Source: Escherichia phage vB_EcoM_G4498. Taken from it: 64,000 nt of DNA. The stretch lies in the sequence record NC_054918.1, one strand, 5' to 3'. Under the pieces are notes generated by a model. It was not told where the DNA came from, searched no databases, and saw only the letters and a list, made by a program, of their open reading frames with translations. This document shows positions 276 through 42,358 of the stretch, piece after piece. How positions within the stretch are numbered: the stretch's first letter is position 1; every line of letters begins with the position of its first letter. A program made the translations under genes and the position numbers.

Positions 276-992
276 ATGAATTATAAACTAATTTATGAAA
301 AGTTAATCTCTAATGCTAAATCTCGAAAACTTGATTGCTATACTGAATCTCATCACATTATACCACGCTGTTTAAACGGTAGTGATGATGCTTCAAACTT
401 AGTAGATTTAACGCCAGAAGAGCACTATGTAGCTCATCAACTTTTAGTAAAAATTTATCCTTCTGAACCAAAATTAGTCTATGCTGCTAACATGATGACA
501 GTTTCCACGAAATACGCTAAACGCAACAATAAAACTTTCGGTTGGATTCGTCGTAAACTCTGGGAAATAGAAAAGAACAAAGAATTCTCCCAGGAGACAC
601 GAAAGAAAATGTCTGATGCAGTAGCTAATAAAGCAAGACTAACTTGTCCTCATTGCGGTAAGTCTGGATTAAGCGGGAATATGAATCGTTGGCATTTTGA
701 TAACTGTCCAAATCACCCTAATCCTAAAGTTAGACCACCATTGTCTAAAGAACACAGAAATAATATCTCAAACGGGCTTAAAGCAATCGTTCTTGAAGAA
801 ACATCCTGCGAATTCTGTGGAATGATAGGCAAGAAATGCGTTATCGCAGCGCATAGAAATTTCTGCAAGAAAAATCCAAATGGACGCAAGAAAACTGAAA
901 AGACTGGTACTTGCGTCCATTGTGGTAAAGTTACCACTTTCGGAAATTTATCAAGATGGCATAATGATAACTGTAAATATAAACCTAGCTAA
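276..992 (+). CDS. HNH-family homing endonuclease (Mob-like), free-standing
   Basis: N-terminal HNH motif ...ESHHIIPRCLNGSDDASNLVDLTPEEHYVAHQ...; three C-terminal Cys-rich repeats (CPHCGK...WHFDNC, CEFCG...HRNFC, CVHCGK...WHNDNC); AAAGGA SD before ATG; opposite strand to neighbours, 3' end overlaps gene 46. Confidence 0.75.
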   Translation: MNYKLIYEKLISNAKSRKLDCYTESHHIIPRCLNGSDDASNLVDLTPEEHYVAHQLLVKIYPSEPKLVYAANMMTVSTKYAKRNNKTFGWIRRKLWEIEKNKEFSQETRKKMSDAVANKARLTCPHCGKSGLSGNMNRWHFDNCPNHPNPKVRPPLSKEHRNNISNGLKAIVLEETSCEFCGMIGKKCVIAAHRNFCKKNPNGRKKTEKTGTCVHCGKVTTFGNLSRWHNDNCKYKPS

Positions 993-2673
993 TCTTAGCT
1001 AAACTAAATCTACCAACTTTTTCCATCTGAATATGCTGACCATATTCTTGTGGGTCATGGTCTTTATGCGAAATTATGAAGAAGTTGGTATCCTTCAAAC
1101 CATCTAAAATTTTAGCTACATTTTTAATACCTTCAGCATCAAATGCACCGTCATATACTTCATCAAGAAATAAACAGCTTATTTTAACACCTGAAACTTT
1201 TTCAGCAATATCACGCCAAGTAAATAAAAGAGCAATATCAATTCGCGCTTTTTCACCTTGACTGAATGAAGCATAACTAAAATCTTCACGACCACGGGAT
1301 TTAATTGTCTCATTAAATTCTTCATCTAATGTAAACACATAATCCGCTTCCATTATTTTAAGATAATGGTTAATCTGCTTATTAAATAATGGAATGTACT
1401 TTTTAATAATAGCACCTTTAATACCAGAATCTTTGAGCATATCAGTCAAAATTCCTCGGTGGTATTTTTCCATTACTAAATTAGTTTTTGTCTTAACAAT
1501 TTTATCAAGTTCTTCTTGAAGCAGTGCTATTTCATCAGCATGGTCAATAAACTCAGAAGATGCTTTTTCTATAGCTGCTTTAACTTTTTTAGCTTTATCT
1601 ACTGTCGTGATTAGAGATTGCTTTTTATTGCGAATATCATTTGCCAACGACTGCTGGGTTTTAATATTATCTCGGTATTCATCAACAAGAACTTTTAAAT
1701 TATCACGATGTGTTGAAAGCTGTTCAAACGAATGCGTGCATTCAGAAACTTTATCTTTAATTTTAGAAACAACTTTATCACCGGAACTTAATTGCGACAA
1801 ACAGGTTGGACATAATCCACCTTCGTGATACATATTAATGACTTTATTATATGAGTCAATTTTTGATTTAATTAAAACTGCTTCTTGACCGATTTTATTA
1901 AATGCATCAGTCGGGTCTTCATCCAAAACAATATTAACTAATCTTTCATTAGCTTCTTCTATTTCCGATTTTAGCGTTCTAGCTTCTTTTGCCAAATCAT
2001 CGTACATATTTTGCAGACGAGTAAGATTGTCACCCGTTAATTTTTTCTGGCGTTCAACGTTATCATTATATATTTTAATTTGTTGGATAATACTATCTTT
2101 TTTAACATCAAGCACTTGGTTTTGTGAATTTAATTCACGTATTAGTGCTTTATTAAGCTTATCCATTTCAGCTAATGTTCCTACCTCAAGCAGGTCTTCC
2201 ACAAGCTTTCTTCGCGCAGGGGTCGACAAACCCATGAAAGGGGTATACCCTGCTGTACCAAGGACAACAATCTGCTTGAAACTGGCATATGACATTCCGA
2301 TAAGCTGTTCAAATTCTGCTTGGAAATCTTTACTGCTGGCAGATTCATTAAGACGTGTACCGTTAACGGTGATTTCGAAAACGTTTGGTTTTTGTCCTCT
2401 TTTGATATAGTACTTTTTCTCATCATATTCCATCCACAGTTCAACTAAAAGTTCTTTCTTATTTGTGCTGTTTATTAATTGACCTTTCTTTACATCACGA
2501 AATGGTTTGCCAAAAAGCCCAAATGTGATGGCTTCTAACATAGTAGACTTACCACCGCCATTTCGGCCAGTAATAAGAGTTTTTTGAACCTTATCTAGTT
2601 GAATGTCAATAGGATTTCCACCTACTGACATTATATTTTGATACCTAACTCGGTTTAGTTTAAAATTCTTCAC
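985..2673 (-). CDS. 46: gp46 recombination endonuclease subunit (Rad50/SbcC-like ATPase)
   Basis: 562 aa; Walker A GRNGGGKST; long central coiled coil; position next to 47. Confidence 0.9.
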   Translation of the reverse strand: MKNFKLNRVRYQNIMSVGGNPIDIQLDKVQKTLITGRNGGGKSTMLEAITFGLFGKPFRDVKKGQLINSTNKKELLVELWMEYDEKKYYIKRGQKPNVFEITVNGTRLNESASSKDFQAEFEQLIGMSYASFKQIVVLGTAGYTPFMGLSTPARRKLVEDLLEVGTLAEMDKLNKALIRELNSQNQVLDVKKDSIIQQIKIYNDNVERQKKLTGDNLTRLQNMYDDLAKEARTLKSEIEEANERLVNIVLDEDPTDAFNKIGQEAVLIKSKIDSYNKVINMYHEGGLCPTCLSQLSSGDKVVSKIKDKVSECTHSFEQLSTHRDNLKVLVDEYRDNIKTQQSLANDIRNKKQSLITTVDKAKKVKAAIEKASSEFIDHADEIALLQEELDKIVKTKTNLVMEKYHRGILTDMLKDSGIKGAIIKKYIPLFNKQINHYLKIMEADYVFTLDEEFNETIKSRGREDFSYASFSQGEKARIDIALLFTWRDIAEKVSGVKISCLFLDEVYDGAFDAEGIKNVAKILDGLKDTNFFIISHKDHDPQEYGQHIQMEKVGRFSLAKIS

Positions 2674-3116
2674 AAAAGATTCCTTTTAATGTATCTTTTA
2701 GACCATTCTATCATATCATCATAATCTAAAAAGTATTCATCAAATTCAGCCATGCAAACAACGCCTTGTGCTGTTTTTGATGTAATATAAATTATTCCAA
2801 CATATCTAGAATCTTCTTCGGTATAATCAATGTTTGCTATGAATTCATCATTAATGTCAAATGTCGAAAACTTCACAGTATGCATCCTTAATACAAGATA
2901 CAGCCATATCTCGTAATGATTTAGGTGTGTCATTATCTAAAATGTTGAAGTTAAAAGATACAGCCCAGTCAGTGCAGACTGTAACCTTTTTAATACAATT
3001 ATCTTCAACCTCTAACGGTTCAAACCAATATTCAATAATTTCTTTATGCCCAATATCATCTTTTACTTCGCATTCAAAATGCTGACTCATCATAACATTT
3101 TTAAATTCATCAAAAG

Positions 3117-31048: not shown

Positions 31049-31522
31049 TTATTTGAACGATTTAACGTACTGAATAGAACCTTTACTATTCACAAAGGCA
31101 ATTTTACCATTTTTGTTATACATAGTAGCAGTACGTTGATAACCGTAAGTTTGTTTACCAGATTGATAACCAACTAATGCGAAATTATCTTCACCCATTT
31201 TATTCTGTTTAGCGCGAATGCGTTCATGACCATGTGCCATAAGAACCTTAGCATCACCAGTTGCAATGGATCGACGAGTTTTTTCATCTTCAGCTGTATT
31301 AACAAAGTCGTCAAATGAATCAAATTTAGCATGAGATTTATTATACAGTTTTCCATCTACTGCATAATTATATCCTTGTACATCCATCTCAACTTCTGTA
31401 CCATCATCTAATACAGCAGTAATTTTCTGTCCTTTTTTAAATTTCAAAAGATCAGTAAAAGATTCAGCAATAATTTGAGAATTAATAGCTGCCTCAGTAA
31501 TAAATTCTTGATATGTTTTCAT
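31049..31522 (-). CDS. internal-protein-like protein with capsid-targeting leader (157 aa)
   Basis: N-terminus MKTYQEFITEA; AAAGGA SD. Confidence 0.65.
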   Translation of the reverse strand: MKTYQEFITEAAINSQIIAESFTDLLKFKKGQKITAVLDDGTEVEMDVQGYNYAVDGKLYNKSHAKFDSFDDFVNTAEDEKTRRSIATGDAKVLMAHGHERIRAKQNKMGEDNFALVGYQSGKQTYGYQRTATMYNKNGKIAFVNSKGSIQYVKSFK

Positions 31523-31630
31523 GTATATCCTTTAAATGTAAATAGTTTTATTCTTTAAGTTTTGGACAATTCACACGCATGAATTGTCCGTTTCTATATT
31601 TACCCATTACCAGGTTCGAACTCGGCTTTA

Positions 31631-32212
31631 TTAAGAATTACCGCGGGCTGCATTAGCAACGGCGTAAGCGTACTGAACATTAGCGTCTTTAAACGTACCT
31701 TTAGAGGTATCTATTTCTGCCCTAAAGCCGCCTTTAGTCATAACATCGGCAAATTCTTTACGGAAAGCCATTGCATCAAGACTTCTCCATGATGATTTGT
31801 GCTTGGCAAATTCAAGACCTGCGAAGTTGACAGCTTTAGCCAATTTATTATCAATGACCCATTTACCGGCTTTAGGCACAAACTTCGGGCCTTTTTGTTT
31901 AGAGAACAGTTTTAAATTCCAGCGACGAAGGTCACTGTCGGCTTTAACAAAAGCTGCGTCTAAGTTACTAGCAACAACATCTTCAATATGAGCAAATTTA
32001 AGTCCGTCAACTTCAATATTTAAATCGGTACGCCAGCGAAGTCCTTCCCATGCGAAGGCTTTAAAGTCAGAAGCCTTTGTAGCTAAGTACCGTTCAATAG
32101 GAGCTGTTTTAGGGTCAAAGCCGTTTCCCGATCGGTAGGTCCACTCATCTTTGTTAATGCCTTTGGCCTTTACTACAGAAGCTTCGGCAATAAATTCTTG
32201 ATAGGTTTTCAT
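31631..32212 (-). CDS. ipIII: internal protein III-like (193 aa) with capsid-targeting leader
   Basis: N-terminus MKTYQEFIAEA; 193 aa as T4 IPIII; AAGGAAA SD; own early promoter. Confidence 0.6.
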   Translation of the reverse strand: MKTYQEFIAEASVVKAKGINKDEWTYRSGNGFDPKTAPIERYLATKASDFKAFAWEGLRWRTDLNIEVDGLKFAHIEDVVASNLDAAFVKADSDLRRWNLKLFSKQKGPKFVPKAGKWVIDNKLAKAVNFAGLEFAKHKSSWRSLDAMAFRKEFADVMTKGGFRAEIDTSKGTFKDANVQYAYAVANAARGNS

Positions 32213-32238
32213 GTGTTTCCTTGTTTGTTTTGATAGAG

Positions 32239-32270
32239 TAATTATACCATATTAATACTTAAGCGTAAAC
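32239..32270 (-). promoter_or_regulatory. T4-type early promoter (-35 GTTTAC, -10 TATAAT)
   Basis: minus-strand GTTTACGCTTAAGTATTAATATGGTATAATTACTC. Confidence 0.55.
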
Positions 32271-32273
32271 CGT

Positions 32274-32534
32274 TTAAGCTTTACCGCCAGAAATAATTCC
32301 GAAGTTGTTAAAATCATATCCAATATCGTCAACATCTACTTTAGGACTTGCTACAACATAAGCAATTTCACTACGTTTTGCACAGGTGTTGATTTCTTTA
32401 CCATCGCCACCTAAGAAAGAATACCCATTACGTTTTAATGAGCCAAAGTCTTCCGCATCACCAATGAAAGCTTTAACTTTAAATTTAGAACCTTTGGCAT
32501 CTGCTTCAACGATAAATTCTTGATACATTTTCAT
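32274..32534 (-). CDS. internal-protein-like protein with capsid-targeting leader (86 aa)
   Basis: N-terminus MKMYQEFIVEA; AAGGAAAA SD directly after denV remnant stop. Confidence 0.6.
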   Translation of the reverse strand: MKMYQEFIVEADAKGSKFKVKAFIGDAEDFGSLKRNGYSFLGGDGKEINTCAKRSEIAYVVASPKVDVDDIGYDFNNFGIISGGKA

Positions 32535-32540
32535 TTTTCC

Positions 32541-32651
32541 TTAGTAAATTGATTTACCAAAGTATTTGTACCAAGTCGGACGTTGATCAATTTTTTCATC
32601 TAAGCGTGCTTGATTTATCGCAATGGACGCTTCGGACGGGTCATAATTTCC
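32541..32651 (-). pseudogene. denV: denV (endonuclease V, pyrimidine dimer glycosylase) 3' remnant, last ~36 codons only
   Basis: translation [36 protein letters not shown] matches the T4 DenV C-terminus as recalled; upstream sequence is promoter/IP-gene DNA, not denV. Confidence 0.6.
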
Positions 32652-32671
32652 TCCAAGTAGTTGATGAATGT

Positions 32672-32701
32672 ATAGTATCAAAACCCTTGGAGGAAGTAAA
32701 C
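32672..32701 (-). promoter_or_regulatory. T4-type early promoter (-35 GTTTAC, -10 TACTAT) inside the denV-remnant ORF
   Basis: minus-strand GTTTACTTCCTCCAAGGGTTTTGATACTATACATTC. Confidence 0.45.
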
Positions 32702-32703
32702 AA

Positions 32704-33944
<1,241 letters not shown>

Positions 33945-36661: not shown

Positions 36662-37225
36662 TTATTTACATAGTTTAGTTATTATAGCTTCTGCAGCAGC
36701 TTTTAGCTTAGATGCGGTGTTAATACGATTTTTAATTTCAGTATATGCATCGCCAAGAACATCAAGGCTATCAGAATAAACACTTACACTATTGCGTTCG
36801 CTATTTGAAATAGAACCTTTAGTTTTACGATCAAAATCGGTATACACGTCTTGAAGATCGCGGGCTGCCTTCTTTGCATCATCCAATGCATCAAGAGCTT
36901 TATTCAAAGCATTGACATATTTTTTAGTGTCAAACATATTCTTAGAAATTTTAACAGGTGCACGTTCAGGAGTAGCTAATGCAGATTTAGAAACCTGAGC
37001 GCCAGATGCCAATTTCTTAGAAATTTTGAAAAATGCTTTATTGAAACTATTTTCTTGGCTCATCGTAAAAGAACTGTTATCGATGTTATACATTTCAATA
37101 GCTTTAGCTTTCCACTTAAGAAAATCGCCCCGGTCTTTTGGGTCCAAGTGGAAGAATACTTTAGTAAGATCTGCTTCAGATGGTAATTTTGCTGCTTCAG
37201 TTAAAAATTCGGCATAGGTTTTCAT
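36662..37225 (-). CDS. internal-protein-like protein with capsid-targeting leader (187 aa)
   Basis: N-terminus MKTYAEFLTEAA; AAGGA SD. Confidence 0.6.
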   Translation of the reverse strand: MKTYAEFLTEAAKLPSEADLTKVFFHLDPKDRGDFLKWKAKAIEMYNIDNSSFTMSQENSFNKAFFKISKKLASGAQVSKSALATPERAPVKISKNMFDTKKYVNALNKALDALDDAKKAARDLQDVYTDFDRKTKGSISNSERNSVSVYSDSLDVLGDAYTEIKNRINTASKLKAAAEAIITKLCK

Positions 37226-38004: not shown

Positions 38005-38081
<77 letters not shown>

Positions 38082-38085
38082 TATT

Positions 38086-38160
38086 TGGCGGACGTGATAG
38101 GATTCGAACCTATAACCAATCGCTTAACAGGCGATCGCTCTGCCATTGAGCTACACATCC
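38086..38160 (-). tRNA. tRNA-Asn: tRNA-Asn (anticodon GTT), CCA encoded
   Basis: acceptor GGATGTG/CACGTCC, anticodon stem ATCGC/GCGAT, loop CUGUUAA, T-loop GGTTCGAATCC. Confidence 0.8.
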
Positions 38161-38164
38161 AAAT

Positions 38165-38251
38165 TGGTGGGGAGCGATGGAGTCGAACCACCCGAGTCGC
38201 AATGACAATGGATTTACAGTCCACACCGCTACCTCTACGGGATAACTCCCC
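38165..38251 (-). tRNA. tRNA-Tyr: tRNA-Tyr (anticodon GTA), long variable arm, CCA encoded
   Basis: acceptor GGGGAGT/GCTCCCC, anticodon loop CUGUAAA, long variable arm as in bacterial tRNA-Tyr. Confidence 0.75.
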
Positions 38252-38260
38252 TAATTAATT

Positions 38261-38335
38261 TGGTGGCCCTGGGTGGAATTGAACCACCATCTGGCGATTA
38301 TGAGTCGCTTGCTTGAACCTTCCAGCTACAGGGCC
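38261..38335 (-). tRNA. tRNA-Ile: tRNA with anticodon CAT (T4 tRNA-Ile position; Ile2 via lysidine, or Met)
   Basis: acceptor GGCCCTG/CAGGGCC, anticodon loop CUCAUAA; directly adjacent to tRNA-Thr as in the T4 Thr-Ile precursor. Confidence 0.8.
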
Positions 38336-38336
38336 T

Positions 38337-38412
38337 TGGTGCTGATTGACGGAATCGAACCGCCGACCTTCTCATTACAAGTGAGTTGCTCTACCTACTG
38401 AGCTAAATCAGC
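38337..38412 (-). tRNA. tRNA-Thr: tRNA-Thr (anticodon TGT), CCA encoded
   Basis: acceptor GCTGATT/AATCAGC, D-stem GCTC/GAGC, anticodon loop CUUGUAA. Confidence 0.85.
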
Positions 38413-38417
38413 AAAAC

Positions 38418-38507
38418 TGGCGGAGGCGATAGGATTTGAACCTATGAGTCGCCGGAGCGACTGCCGGTTTTCAAGACCGGTGCATTAAACCACTCTGCCA
38501 CGCCTCC
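38418..38507 (-). tRNA. tRNA-Ser: tRNA-Ser (anticodon TGA), type II, CCA encoded
   Basis: acceptor GGAGGCG/CGCCTCC, anticodon stem CCGGT/ACCGG, loop CUUGAAA, long variable arm. Confidence 0.85.
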
Positions 38508-38509
38508 AG

Positions 38510-38584
38510 TCTCCGTGACAGGATTTGAACCTACGACATTCTGCTCCCAAAGCAGACGCTCTACCAAACTGAGCTACACGGAGT
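38510..38584 (-). tRNA. tRNA-Pro: tRNA-Pro (anticodon TGG), CCA not encoded
   Basis: acceptor CTCCGTG/CACGGAG, anticodon loop UUUGGGA; abuts tRNA-Ser (dimeric precursor arrangement). Confidence 0.85.
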
Positions 38585-38593
38585 AAATTAAAT

Positions 38594-38667
<74 letters not shown>

Positions 38668-38672
38668 AAATT

Positions 38673-38759
38673 TGGTGCGAGAAGTGGGACTCGAACCCAC
38701 AAGGAAATCATTCCGCAGCATTTTAAGTGCTGTGCCTTTACCAATTTGACCATTCTCGC
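38673..38759 (-). tRNA. tRNA-Leu: tRNA-Leu (anticodon TAA), type II, CCA encoded
   Basis: acceptor GCGAGAA/TTCTCGC, anticodon stem CAGCA/TGCTG, loop CUUAAAA, long variable arm. Confidence 0.85.
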
Positions 38760-38760
38760 G

Positions 38761-38833
38761 CTGGGAATAAAGGACTCGAACCTTTGCATCCTGGAATCAA
38801 AATCCAGTGCCTTACCAACTTGGCTAATTCCCA
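38761..38833 (-). tRNA. tRNA-Gln: tRNA-Gln (anticodon TTG), CCA not encoded
   Basis: acceptor TGGGAAT/ATTCCCA, anticodon loop UUUUGAU; 1 nt from tRNA-Leu (dimeric precursor arrangement). Confidence 0.85.
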
Positions 38834-39229: not shown

Positions 39230-39628
39230 TCAACGATAGTATGAGTATGGGCATTTACGATTTGCCACCAGTGAAACGATTGGAACCATAATCTGGTTTA
39301 TTTCATTTTCTTTAATAATATCACGCAGCTTATCTTCTGTTTCAGCATACGCAATTAAATCATCATACCCACCACAAGGATAATAATTATCACCTGCGAA
39401 TAAAAGAAAATTTACCTTAGATGGATTTACGTAATAATGGTCTTTAGGATATTTAGTTCCTCTCCAATCAGTTACTTCAACATAACGGTAAGAAAATCCA
39501 TTTTTACTTTCAATCCAACTCCACGCTTCAAAAGGAGTATTAAAAACTTTATCAGGTATTAAATTACCTTCAAAATGAGAAGGATTTGCATAATCCCCGG
39601 CATAAACATAATATTCGTTAATACTCAT
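39230..39628 (-). CDS. hypothetical protein (132 aa)
   Basis: ORF. Confidence 0.45.
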   Translation of the reverse strand: MSINEYYVYAGDYANPSHFEGNLIPDKVFNTPFEAWSWIESKNGFSYRYVEVTDWRGTKYPKDHYYVNPSKVNFLLFAGDNYYPCGGYDDLIAYAETEDKLRDIIKENEINQIMVPIVSLVANRKCPYSYYR

Positions 39629-39814
39629 TTATTCACCTTTAGAAATTTTATCCATAACGATAGCGATTAAACCAATTAAAAATGCTACTACAAGTGAAAA
39701 CACATTTTCTGCTGTAGTTAATAATCCGCATATAAATCCAGCAAACATTGAAAAACTAAAAGCGGAAGCAGAAATTGCAATAGCAACATTTCGAATTAAT
39801 TCACAGCGTTTCAT
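39629..39814 (-). CDS. small membrane protein (61 aa)
   Basis: start at MKRCELIRN (GAGGAG SD); hydrophobic helices. Confidence 0.45.
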   Translation of the reverse strand: MKRCELIRNVAIAISASAFSFSMFAGFICGLLTTAENVFSLVVAFLIGLIAIVMDKISKGE

Positions 39815-39840
39815 TTTATTCTCCTCAGTAGTTGATAGGG

Positions 39841-39872
39841 TAATAGTATCACAACTAAAACCACATGTAAAC
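39841..39872 (-). promoter_or_regulatory. T4-type early promoter (-35 GTTTAC, -10 TACTAT)
   Basis: minus-strand GTTTACATGTGGTTTTAGTTGTGATACTATTACC. Confidence 0.5.
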
Positions 39873-39875
39873 AAT

Positions 39876-40112
39876 TTATTCAACACCAGCGGCTTTCAAA
39901 AGTTTCTTAAGATTGGCAACACCTTGAGCAGAAAATGTGACCTTTCCACCTTTTTCACTGATAGAACCAACCAATTTAGCAAGTTTATCATTAGGAATTT
40001 TTTTAAAATCAGCCAATGTCCCATCAAAGGTTTTTGAAACAAAAGGCAGTTCATCTTCATGTCTTTTAGCTTCTACAATAAATTTTTGATATGTTTCCAT
40101 TTTAGTTTCCAT
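39876..40112 (-). CDS. internal-protein-like protein with capsid-targeting-like leader (about 74-78 aa)
   Basis: N-terminus (METK)METYQKFIVEAK; start may be the second ATG at 40100. Confidence 0.5.
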   Translation of the reverse strand: METKMETYQKFIVEAKRHEDELPFVSKTFDGTLADFKKIPNDKLAKLVGSISEKGGKVTFSAQGVANLKKLLKAAGVE

Positions 40113-40135
40113 TTAGATGTTTTGTTTTGATAGGG

Positions 40136-40167
40136 TAATAATATCACTACCCCATCTAAAAGTAAAC
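40136..40167 (-). promoter_or_regulatory. T4-type early promoter (-35 GTTTAC, -10 TATTAT)
   Basis: minus-strand GTTTACTTTTAGATGGGGTAGTGATATTATTACC. Confidence 0.5.
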
Positions 40168-40177
40168 GGTTTATAAA

Positions 40178-40486
40178 CTATTTTATTCCGCGTGATGCAA
40201 TTGTGTTCTGCCGTTTAACGCCAGTTTGTTTAAAGTCATGATTGTCGATTTGATCGGTACGAGCAACTCCGAATGATGATTTGATTTTAGCCTTAGATCC
40301 TTTAGTTATAGAAATAAACATCTCGGAAGCCCCTTTCTTAAAGTCCGAGGCGATTACTTCAACGCCGTTCTTAGCAAGTGACTTCAGAATTGCCTCTGCA
40401 TACTCATCGTCAAGACTCGTCTGAGTATTAATAACGAATGTCTTTGGCGCAGCCGCTTCATTGATAAATTCTTTAAATGTTTTCAT
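40178..40486 (-). CDS. internal-protein-like protein with capsid-targeting-like leader (102 aa)
   Basis: N-terminus MKTFKEFINEAA; AGGAAAA SD. Confidence 0.55.
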   Translation of the reverse strand: MKTFKEFINEAAAPKTFVINTQTSLDDEYAEAILKSLAKNGVEVIASDFKKGASEMFISITKGSKAKIKSSFGVARTDQIDNHDFKQTGVKRQNTIASRGIK

Positions 40487-40515
40487 TTTTATTTTCCTAA
40501 TTAATTTTGATGAGA

Positions 40516-40547
40516 TAATAGTACCACAACCCTATTTAAAAGTAAAC
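40516..40547 (-). promoter_or_regulatory. T4-type early promoter (-35 GTTTAC, -10 TACTAT)
   Basis: minus-strand GTTTACTTTTAAATAGGGTTGTGGTACTATTATC. Confidence 0.5.
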
Positions 40548-40820
40548 TCATTTTAAATAAATTGCGTATTTTTTATAACCCGCTGACTCATGACGAAGAC
40601 CATTATCATTAGCAAAACGCTCAATGTTGTTAATTTGATTCTGGTCAAGTTCAGAGATGTCAAACACGAAAAAGTTACGTTTGTTACCAACTGTTACATA
40701 GTCAGTTAAATCAATATCATATAGGTAATTGATGTCAGCAATCAAAGTCTTGACAGCTTTGCTAATTTTTACTTTTTCGTTAAAAGCAGCTTCAGCAATA
40801 AATTCTTGATACGTTTTCAT
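40548..40820 (-). CDS. ipI: internal protein I-like (about 90 aa) with capsid-targeting leader
   Basis: start at MKTYQEFIAEAAF (GGAGAA SD); immediately downstream of 57B as T4 ipI. Confidence 0.6.
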   Translation of the reverse strand: MKTYQEFIAEAAFNEKVKISKAVKTLIADINYLYDIDLTDYVTVGNKRNFFVFDISELDQNQINNIERFANDNGLRHESAGYKKYAIYLK

Positions 40821-40854
40821 TTTATTCTCCAATTTCACATTTGTTTTGATAGGG

Positions 40855-40886
40855 TAATAGTATCACTACTAAAACCCCGTGTAAAC
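40855..40886 (-). promoter_or_regulatory. T4-type early promoter (-35 GTTTAC, -10 TACTAT)
   Basis: minus-strand GTTTACACGGGGTTTTAGTAGTGATACTATTACC. Confidence 0.5.
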
Positions 40887-40898
40887 AACTTTGTGAAA

Positions 40899-41583
<685 letters not shown>

Positions 41584-41584
<1 letters not shown>

Positions 41585-42309
41585 TATAGTACCTTTAGTG
41601 TATTTTTAATTTTAGAAAAAAGTTCTTCAAGAGAACCATCGTTTGTAATTACTAAATCGCCATCACGAATTGGCAATCCAGCTTCTGTAATATGTGTATC
41701 ATTGGATTTTTGACCAGGACGAACTACATGAATTACTGTAGCACCCATCGCCCTAGCCGCATCCATTTCATGATCTTGACGGGTATCAGGAACGATATAA
41801 TAATCATAACCTGAGTTAAATTTATCAAGATAATCTAAAGCAAATAATTTTACCCAGTACATGCGGTCGAAGTTATTAACAATCAAATCCGTACCTAGGG
41901 CTTGCATCAGACGACGGACTGACCATTGATCTTCAATATTATTTATAACGTCAATAATCTTGTTAAATGCTACGGAATTAACTGATTCTTGTCCTTCGTC
42001 ATCAAAAACAAACACACCTTTAATTGGGCTTTTACCATTAAGATAGCAAAATGCTTGTTCCATAATGGTGATTACTTCTAATTTAGTCAGATTTAAATTA
42101 GTCTCACGATCATAGTCAATTCCTTCAAACTCTTTACGAGTTAAGCAAGGATAGTCAGTGTTTGCTGCAAATACTCCCCATGCATAAGCCAATGCATCCT
42201 TAATAGGACCAGCAAGTTGGTATTTAATTGCAGAATAATTGCTCATGATAAAATCAGCAGTAGTATCTTTTCCACTACGCTTTACACCGCTTAAAAAGAT
42301 TAGTTTCAT
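41584..42309 (-). CDS. 1: gp1 deoxynucleoside monophosphate kinase
   Basis: 241 aa from ATG at 42309 (GAGGAG SD); P-loop GVKRSGKDT. Confidence 0.85.
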
Positions 42310-42358
42310 GTGTTTCTCCTCAAATTTAATTAAGATTATAACACACAAAACTGAAGCA

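Follow-up and report, generated by a model that had tools for sequence, protein, structure and literature searches.

In phage T4, the interval between 57B and trna.4 contains exactly one gene, ipI, as an earlier note on the present sequence had stated. The same interval of the DNA analyzed here (the window, a stretch of 64,000 nucleotides from Escherichia phage vB_EcoM_G4498) contains three small genes, which raises the question of what these genes are, how the array is built and what its products do for the phage. The window comes from a T4-like genome (genus Tequatrovirus) and carries its genes on the minus strand. A 1.8-kb region around the array matches 670 phage records, nearly all of them from T4-like phages of Escherichia, Shigella or Salmonella; Escherichia phage 310Ecol104PP (Tequatrovirus) matches best, at 97.1% identity, and at least 80% of the region is covered in 24 records only. 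The three ORFs are real, lie on the minus strand and have the N-termini quoted previously (Table 1). The array had been placed upstream of 57B; in the direction of transcription, the genes in fact sit downstream of 57B, which forms the conserved flank on the transcription-upstream side. The location of the array, abutting Acb1, fits an anti-defence island. The trna.4 homologue has no leader, is not an internal-protein (IP) gene and forms the conserved downstream flank, beyond which lie trna.3 and trna.2 homologues and then ten tRNA genes. The window copy of trna.3 carries two 1-nt deletions. The upper end of the array had been set at 40838, which is indeed an in-frame GTG of the longest ORF, but the start of ip9 is the ATG at 40820, with a GGAG Shine-Dalgarno sequence 8 nt upstream. 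For ip8, an alternative ATG at 40112 has no Shine-Dalgarno sequence, and related records annotate the 74-aa form.

Table 1. Positions of the array, its promoters and leaders, its flanking genes and related ORFs in the window
Feature	Position	Strand	Description
Gene 1 (dNMP kinase)	41584-42348	minus	
57A	41354-41584	minus	
57B = Acb1 (anti-CBASS phosphodiesterase)	40899-41357	minus	Pfam PF23474 Acb1, E 2.7e-60; 100% amino-acid identity to T4 57B
ip9 early promoter	40857-40886	minus	GTTTAC-N18-TACTAT (TTTACA-N17-TACTAT, TG before -10); direct-repeat family D2
ip9	40548-40820	minus	90 aa, MKTYQEFIAEAAF; 94% amino-acid identity to RB15 Ip9 (Z35082); phrog_7673, internal head protein, 2.8e-54
Ip9 leader	40791-40820	minus	MKTYQEFIAE, codons 1-10; predicted cleavage before A11
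ip7 early promoter	40518-40547	minus	GTTTAC-N18-TACTAT; abuts ip9 stop codon
ip7	40178-40486	minus	102 aa, MKTFKEFINEAA; 99% amino-acid identity to RB15 Ip7; phrog_2667, 5.2e-41
Ip7 leader	40457-40486	minus	MKTFKEFINE; predicted cleavage before A11
ip8 early promoter	40138-40167	minus	GTTTAC-N18-TATTAT, variant -10
ip8	39876-40100	minus	74 aa, METYQKFIVEAK; 98.6% amino-acid identity to RB15 Ip8; phrog_8765, internal virion protein, 9.5e-25
Ip8 leader	40071-40100	minus	METYQKFIVE; K2E relative to RB15 Ip8
Fourth promoter copy, drives trna.4	39843-39872	minus	91% identical to ip9 copy over 46 nt
trna.4 homologue	39629-39814	minus	61-aa predicted membrane protein; 98% amino-acid identity to T4 trna.4; phrog_1692
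Leader-bearing ORF outside the array	36662-37225	minus	Leader regex
Three leader-bearing ORFs outside the array	31049-32985	minus	Leader regex; includes IPIII orthologue
Ip5-family gene	32704-32985		In the window's other ip cluster; 48% identical to RB15 Ip5, same PHROG

A tblastn search with Ip8 retrieved GenBank Z35082.1, "Bacteriophage RB15 DNA for Ip5, Ip9, Ip7, Ip8" (98.6%). This record of 1448 bp has the end of 57B at position 7, the beginning of trna.4 at position 1423 and ip5, ip9, ip7 and ip8 annotated between them. Positions 39790-40910 of the window (minus strand) align with positions 328-1447 of Z35082 at ~97-98% nucleotide identity, with scattered substitutions only. Because the array aligns with Z35082 minus ip5, the comparison identifies the three ORFs as ip9, ip7 and ip8 of the T-even ipI locus, in the RB15 arrangement minus ip5: both phages have these genes in the same order in the 57B-trna.4 interval, with the same promoter/leader modules. 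The window departs from its database relatives only in small ways. Compared with RB15, it is without ip5 (a 31-bp repeat bounds the indel in RB15), ip9 and trna.4 have traded 5'UTR variants, Ip9 has five amino-acid changes, and Ip8 has K2E in its leader and is otherwise identical. Z35082 was reportedly deposited with Repoila, Tetart, Bouet and Krisch 1994 (EMBO J 13:4181). The array is already known from this RB15 record, and its detection in the window is a correct rediscovery.

Ip9, Ip7 and Ip8 belong to three separate PHROGs, whose annotations read internal head protein or internal virion protein. Ip7 shares 91% identity with the P922 protein named 'internal head protein 7', and the names ip7 and ip9 are used for homologues in other records as well. 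The phage collection contains 191 records with an Ip9-like protein, 282 with an Ip7-like protein and 106 with an Ip8-like protein; a Pfam search found no family for any of the three. The PHROG assignments and the RB15 identity thus bear out the description of the genes as internal-protein-like, although that description had not recognized them as ip9, ip7 and ip8. Orthology of the three genes to ipI was considered and rejected, the BLASTP match to T4 IPI being limited to residues 1-9. Alignment with T4 ipI, which the earlier note had proposed as a check, shows no similarity past these nine residues, and the IPI PHROG is phrog_4363, as opposed to phrog_7673, phrog_2667 and phrog_8765 for Ip9, Ip7 and Ip8, respectively.

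What the three proteins do have in common is a leader of the pattern M-K/E-T-Y/F-x-E/K-F-I-x-E followed by A, a candidate capsid-targeting sequence (CTS). Y/F4, F7, I8 and E10 are present in the Ip9, Ip7 and Ip8 leaders, and residues 8-11 (IAE|A, INE|A and IVE|A) match, as a motif only, the site of the gp21 prohead protease (I/L-x-E plus a small residue). A regular-expression search for the leader in six frames of the window returned exactly 7 ORFs, all on the minus strand, compared with a rough chance expectation of ~0.02; the presence of a leader on each of the three genes, as first noticed, is confirmed far beyond chance. The capsid-targeting sequence of IPIII is said to have been described by Mullaney and Black in 1996. 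Comparison with this T4 sequence (MKTYQEFIAE|A) revealed that the Ip9 leader is identical to it in amino acids and that Ip7 and Ip8 keep residues 4, 7, 8 and 10, of which 4 and 7 are decisive for targeting and 8 and 10 for processing of IPIII (PMC9026906). The cargo domain of IPIII differs in being unrelated to those of Ip7-9, and targeting and cleavage are demonstrated for IPIII only. In a set of 15 different leader sequences at the DNA level, residues T3 and F7 never change, although every one of the four Thr codons is used for T3, and position 9 varies freely; Y4 (TAT/TAC) and I8 (ATT/ATC) also show synonymous variants. This pattern indicates that the leader peptide itself, rather than the DNA alone, is under selection.

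The K2E substitution in the Ip8 leader is absent from all 106 database homologues, and one or more of the three genes might accordingly be read as decaying, for example ip8 with a crippled leader, which would leave the array partly non-functional. The frameshifted ip8 of phage KIT06 and the two 1-nt deletions in the neighboring trna.3 of the window are consistent with such decay, which we nevertheless consider quite unlikely: none of the three ORFs is interrupted or shortened, position 2 is not among the leader residues reported as critical for targeting or processing (PMC9026906), and the remainder of Ip8 is identical to RB15 Ip8.

Analysis of the intergenic regions showed an early promoter in front of each gene. 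The proposal that each gene lies behind a copy of GTTTAC-N18-TACTAT holds exactly for ip9 and ip7, but ip8 has TATTAT as its -10 element. The motif GTTTAC-N17-19-TACTAT occurs 8 times in the window versus 0.02 expected, ~400-fold over chance. With the -10 relaxed to TAYWAT, 15 such promoters are found in the window, all on the minus strand; these share a downstream ...CTATCAA... element, and the motif is therefore a generic T4 early promoter. The fourth copy of the promoter marks the downstream boundary of the cassette array and drives trna.4, so that IP genes are not alone in using the promoter module. A repeat finder independently recovered a family of four 46-nt copies, 67-91% identical, that corresponds to the promoter core, and 3-copy families, with a spacing of 334-386 nt, that combine promoter, UTR and leader. 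All four intergenic promoters match TTTACW-N17-TAYWAT, the published PST/T4 early promoter consensus (PMC4122927). A search for the late promoter TATAAATA found none inside the array, the nearest on the minus strand being at 41940 and 39171, and there were 0 terminator-like sites inside the array. Folding the 70-nt segments that end at each -35 element gave z-scores of -0.98 to +1.78, revealing no convincing stem-loop before the -35.

The promoters bear on whether the products reach the capsid at all. Ip9, Ip7 and Ip8 could be ordinary early cytoplasmic proteins whose leader is a hitch-hiking part of a recombining promoter/translation-initiation module and has no capsid-targeting role, a reading in line with the exclusively early-type promoters and the missing late promoter of the array, with the use of the same promoter/UTR module by the leaderless trna.4, and with the leaderless occurrence of the Ip9 cargo domain in other phage families. 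We regard it as highly improbable in view of the conservation of the leader peptide through synonymous codon changes and the retention of exactly those residues that are experimentally important for IPIII targeting and cleavage (PMC9026906); T4 ipI, moreover, has the same early-promoter arrangement, yet its product is an injected virion protein (PMC3012670).

The behavior of the array across phages was followed in nine loci (57B-trna.4), with genes typed against RB15 and T4 references, which is the comparison with other T-even IP loci that the earlier note had suggested. The interval contains ipI in T4, ip7 in G8, ipI-ip7 in P922, ip9-ip7 in Pu-Krd-SF4, ip9-ip7-ip8 in the window and 310Ecol104PP, ip5-ip9-ip7-ip8 in RB15 and VEc74, and ipI-ip9-ip7-ip8 in KIT06, where ip8 is frameshifted. 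Each of the nine loci thus has 1-4 cassettes in a constant order, and presence or absence alone differs. The ip5 cassette of RB15 is flanked by a 31-bp direct repeat, GATTTAAAATAATTTCACAAAGTTGTTTACA, which spans the final codons of 57B or ip5 together with the spacer and the -35 element. Four 5'UTR variants occur across the intergenic modules and are not bound to particular genes: the variant AAACAAATGTGAAATTGGAG stands before ip9 in the window and before trna.4 in RB15, and the variant CTACTGAGGAG before trna.4 in the window and before ip9 in RB15. Leaders are mosaic as well, being swapped in KIT06, where ip9 has MKTFKEFINE and ip7 has MKTYQEFINE, while the ip8 leader of VEc74 is MKTSKEFIVE. 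On the 3' side, homology is extended by the gene ends, since 57B, ip5 and ip9 all end in ...TTAAAAT(A/G)A. The mosaic indel ends, 5'UTRs and leaders across the nine loci support the view, put forward at the outset, of a cassette-style locus with a promoter-plus-leader module. Short homologies are provided by the promoter/UTR/leader repeats and by the resemblance among gene ends; recombination at them would add, delete and swap cassettes, and the exchange would take place between phages and between the two ip loci, the second of which holds the Ip5-family gene of the window.

This arrangement resembles the promoter-early stem-loop (PeSL) modules, which are reportedly also the subject of Arbiol 2010. 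The promoter-mediated recombination model was formalized as PeSLs by Comeau, Arbiol and Krisch in 2014 (PMC4122927), and the same TTTACW-N17-TAYWAT promoters are found in every intergenic gap here, where they likewise coincide with indel boundaries between close relatives. The array differs in having no convincing stem-loop or terminator before its -35 elements; its promoters begin 0-12 nt after the preceding stop codon. PeSL modules as defined also exclude leader codons and gene 3' ends, whereas the homology in the array reaches both. Because no stem-loop component was found, the modules are better called PeSL-like than canonical PeSLs. The ip genes, their order, the conserved leader and the shuffling of IPs between T-even phages were published in 1994, as documented by Z35082 and by later accounts (PMC3012670, PMC4122927 and PMC12373910). 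The cassette reading itself had likewise already been published by Repoila et al. 1994, going by the accounts in PMC4122927 and PMC3012670, and in the PeSL papers of 2010 and 2014. The general insight into T-even internal-protein diversification therefore dates from 1994, and the locus is a textbook example of diversification in a set of pre-packaged, injected proteins of T-even phages, which are probably host-range determinants.

As to function, there is a high probability that ip9, ip7 and ip8 are packaged internal-protein cassettes, with products that are likely injected host-defence inhibitors. Each gene forms a self-contained cassette, in which a T4 early promoter of the sigma-70 type is followed by a short 5'UTR containing a Shine-Dalgarno sequence, by a 10-codon CTS and by an unrelated cargo domain. 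On the model of T4 IPIII and IPI, the CTS, through its aromatic residue 4 and Phe7, would dock the protein onto the prohead scaffolding core, and the prohead protease gp21 would then cut after I8-x-E10. The mature protein of 64-92 residues would remain with the packaged DNA and enter the host alongside it; injection with the DNA would allow it to act before any phage gene is expressed. Synthesis during head assembly would presumably rely on read-through from upstream late promoters or on continued use of the early promoters, which must hold for T4 ipI too, because its arrangement is the same. We infer packaging, cleavage, injection and counter-defence activity for Ip7-9 from these analogies; a literature search for virion mass spectrometry or injection of Ip7-9 found no relevant paper.

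The closest functional parallel is T4 ipI, which shares the genomic slot, the early-promoter type and the small size of the array genes. Its leader begins with MKTFKEF, similar to the array leaders, and mature IPI* is basic, as are the predicted mature Ip7 and Ip8. The leaders differ in length and site, the 19-residue leader of IPI being cut at ITE|A, versus a 10-residue IxE|A leader in Ip7-9. A counter-defence function was reportedly established in 2007 for Ip1, with Ip2 and Ip3 following in 2025. The T4 ipI product is a proven injected virion protein (PMC3012670), and GmrSD type IV restriction enzymes are inhibited by Ip1, Ip2 and Ip3 of T4, a different one by each (PMC12373910; PMC3012670; PMC9391042). 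Because each of the three inhibits a different GmrSD enzyme, counter-defence is the leading explanation for the array as well, and Ip9, Ip7 and Ip8 would most likely serve as specific inhibitors of a host defence. Activity against GmrSD-type systems, which the earlier note had named as one possible check, did not emerge from the published 2025 screen: ip4-10 gave no reproducible inhibition of GmrSD variants, and apparent signals for ip7/CLS_011 and ip8/CLS_018-019 proved irreproducible (PMC12373910 supplement).

The same screen, having found no defence target for ip4-10 (PMC12373910 supplement), leaves room for proteins that are packaged but have a mainly structural or physical role, such as charge neutralization, organization of condensed DNA or aid in ejection. 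The predicted mature proteins have 80 residues and a pI of 6.8 (Ip9), 92 residues and a pI of 9.65 (Ip7) and 64 residues and a pI of 9.6 (Ip8). The basic character of Ip7 and Ip8 (pI 9.6-9.7) would suit a structural role, as internal-protein lysines contact DNA phosphates in T4 heads (PMC3012670), but Ip9 is neutral. Furthermore, the cassettes are dispensable and vary from 1 to 4 copies by phage, which an adaptive host-range role fits better, and all three T4 IPs are specific GmrSD inhibitors (PMC12373910). We therefore judge a mainly structural function unlikely and retain inhibition of a host defence as the preferred role.

Searches by structure did not point to a particular target. A PDB sequence search with Ip9, Ip7 and Ip8 gave nothing below E = 0.02. 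The AlphaFold2 model of Ip9 (pLDDT 77) consists of a helix, a helix, two strands, a helix and two strands, and that of Ip7 (pLDDT 69) has a ferredoxin-like core with a disordered tail. Foldseek searches of the PDB with both models returned no match at E<1e-3 and did not retrieve IPI*; for Ip7 there were weak ferredoxin-like/ACT/RRM matches only (E about 0.006-0.05, TM about 0.5). In BFVD, the sole strong match of the Ip9 model was an unnamed 535-aa viral protein (31% identity). The fold searches for predicted Ip9 and Ip7 structures were thus uninformative.

Sequence searches with the mature Ip9 domain extended its distribution beyond the T4-like phages. A phmmer search of the entire library gave 8 matches only, all small phage-like proteins except one of 861 aa, and none of them annotated. 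Outside the T4-likes, the Ip9 cargo domain occurs as a stand-alone 74-aa protein in the Seuratvirus (Queuovirinae) KS_S4, as a frameshifted ORF in a Kagunavirus, and close to the C-terminus of two longer proteins, one of 660 aa from the Ackermannviridae phage SKML-39 and the other an 861-aa relative. [quoted passage not shown] Since the cargo domain is common to proteins of these three groups, Ip9, and possibly Ip7 and Ip8, might neutralize a different, broadly distributed first-line defence rather than GmrSD, a suggestion that we put forward as tentative and rather doubtful. If it is true, the T-even phages would have acquired an anti-defence domain in general use among phages and, by setting it behind a promoter-plus-CTS module, made it an effector that is pre-loaded and injected. 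Small leads toward the targets of Ip7-9 come from the leaderless homologues of Ip9 in unrelated phages and from the mosaic UTRs and leaders; they leave the overall picture unaltered. In the alignment, the leaderless Ip9 homologues start ~8 residues past the predicted cleavage site, and the leader is therefore a portable add-on.

Comparison of the window with RB15 revealed that the segments running from the -10 element to the Shine-Dalgarno sequence of ip9 and of trna.4 are reciprocally swapped between the two phages (AAACAAATGTGAAATTGGAG versus CTACTGAGGAG), a recombination footprint within the promoter modules. In addition to the ip array, the window contains four ORFs that open with the predicted leader (see table). 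The Ip5 of RB15 is encoded in the ipI locus (the 57B-trna.4 interval), whereas the Ip5-family gene of the window lies outside it; therefore, either ip locus can hold the Ip5 family, phage by phage.

Coordinates of features in the window and in related phage loci
Feature	Location	Strand	Remarks
57B (Acb1, anti-CBASS phosphodiesterase)	window 40899-41357	-	Pfam PF23474, 2.7e-60
Swapped ip9 and trna.4 segments	window 39815-39842 and 40821-40856; RB15 (L005) 383-409 and 1388-1422		
157-aa leader-bearing ORF	within window 31049-32985	-	phrog_3155
IPIII orthologue, 193 aa, leader-bearing	within window 31049-32985	-	
Ip5-family protein, 93 aa, leader-bearing	within window 31049-32985	-	48% identical to RB15 Ip5
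187-aa leader-bearing ORF	window 36662-37225	-	just past tRNA cluster; phrog_2280, annotated function unknown
tRNA genes	window 38005-38833	-	n=10: Arg, Asn, Tyr, Met, Thr, Ser, Pro, Gly, Leu, Gln
trna.3 homologue	window 39230-39335	-	
Leaderless Ip9 cargo homologue, Seuratvirus KS_S4	KS_S4 locus (L010) 2492-2716		
Leaderless Ip9 cargo homologue, Kagunavirus BCH953P1	BCH953P1 locus (L011) 2537-2773		
SKML-39 gp077	SKML-39 locus (L012) 752-2734		Ip9 cargo domain inside larger protein

Acb1 is a proven counter-defence gene, and because the flanking 57B is Acb1, the ip array adjoins such a gene. Downstream, two single-base deletions, one within GAAAATAAA and the other within TTTCGACTGG, distinguish the trna.3 homologue from its counterparts in T4 and 310Ecol104PP. 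They shift the reading frame over the final ~27 codons and yield a 132-aa product with an altered C-terminus, and may reflect either genuine mutation or an error in sequencing. The segB homing-endonuclease gene, present in T4, is absent from the window stretch 38005-38833, and the tRNA genes number ten, compared with eight in T4.

Within the array, codon 2 of ip8 (window 40095-40097) is changed from AAA to GAA, so that the leader reads METYQKF rather than MKTYQKF. This Ip8 has no identical counterpart among the 106 database homologues, the closest being that of RB15, at 98.6%. The ip8 of KIT06 (580-800 of its locus, L006), a phage carrying ipI-ip9-ip7-ip8, is broken into two reading frames and is either a pseudogene or a sequencing error.

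The Ip9 cargo domain also occurs, lacking the capsid-targeting leader, in the unrelated siphoviruses KS_S4 and BCH953P1. An Ackermannviridae protein of 660-861 aa likewise includes this domain, and its own N-terminus (MATPSFLNFLEES) faintly resembles a leader. The 77-aa 'ip7 protein' of Escherichia phage OLB35 (P0030) is chimeric: its residues 1-45 match residues 29-72 of Ip7, and the remainder matches the C-terminus of Ip9. The protein appears to have arisen by recombination or deletion between two cassettes.
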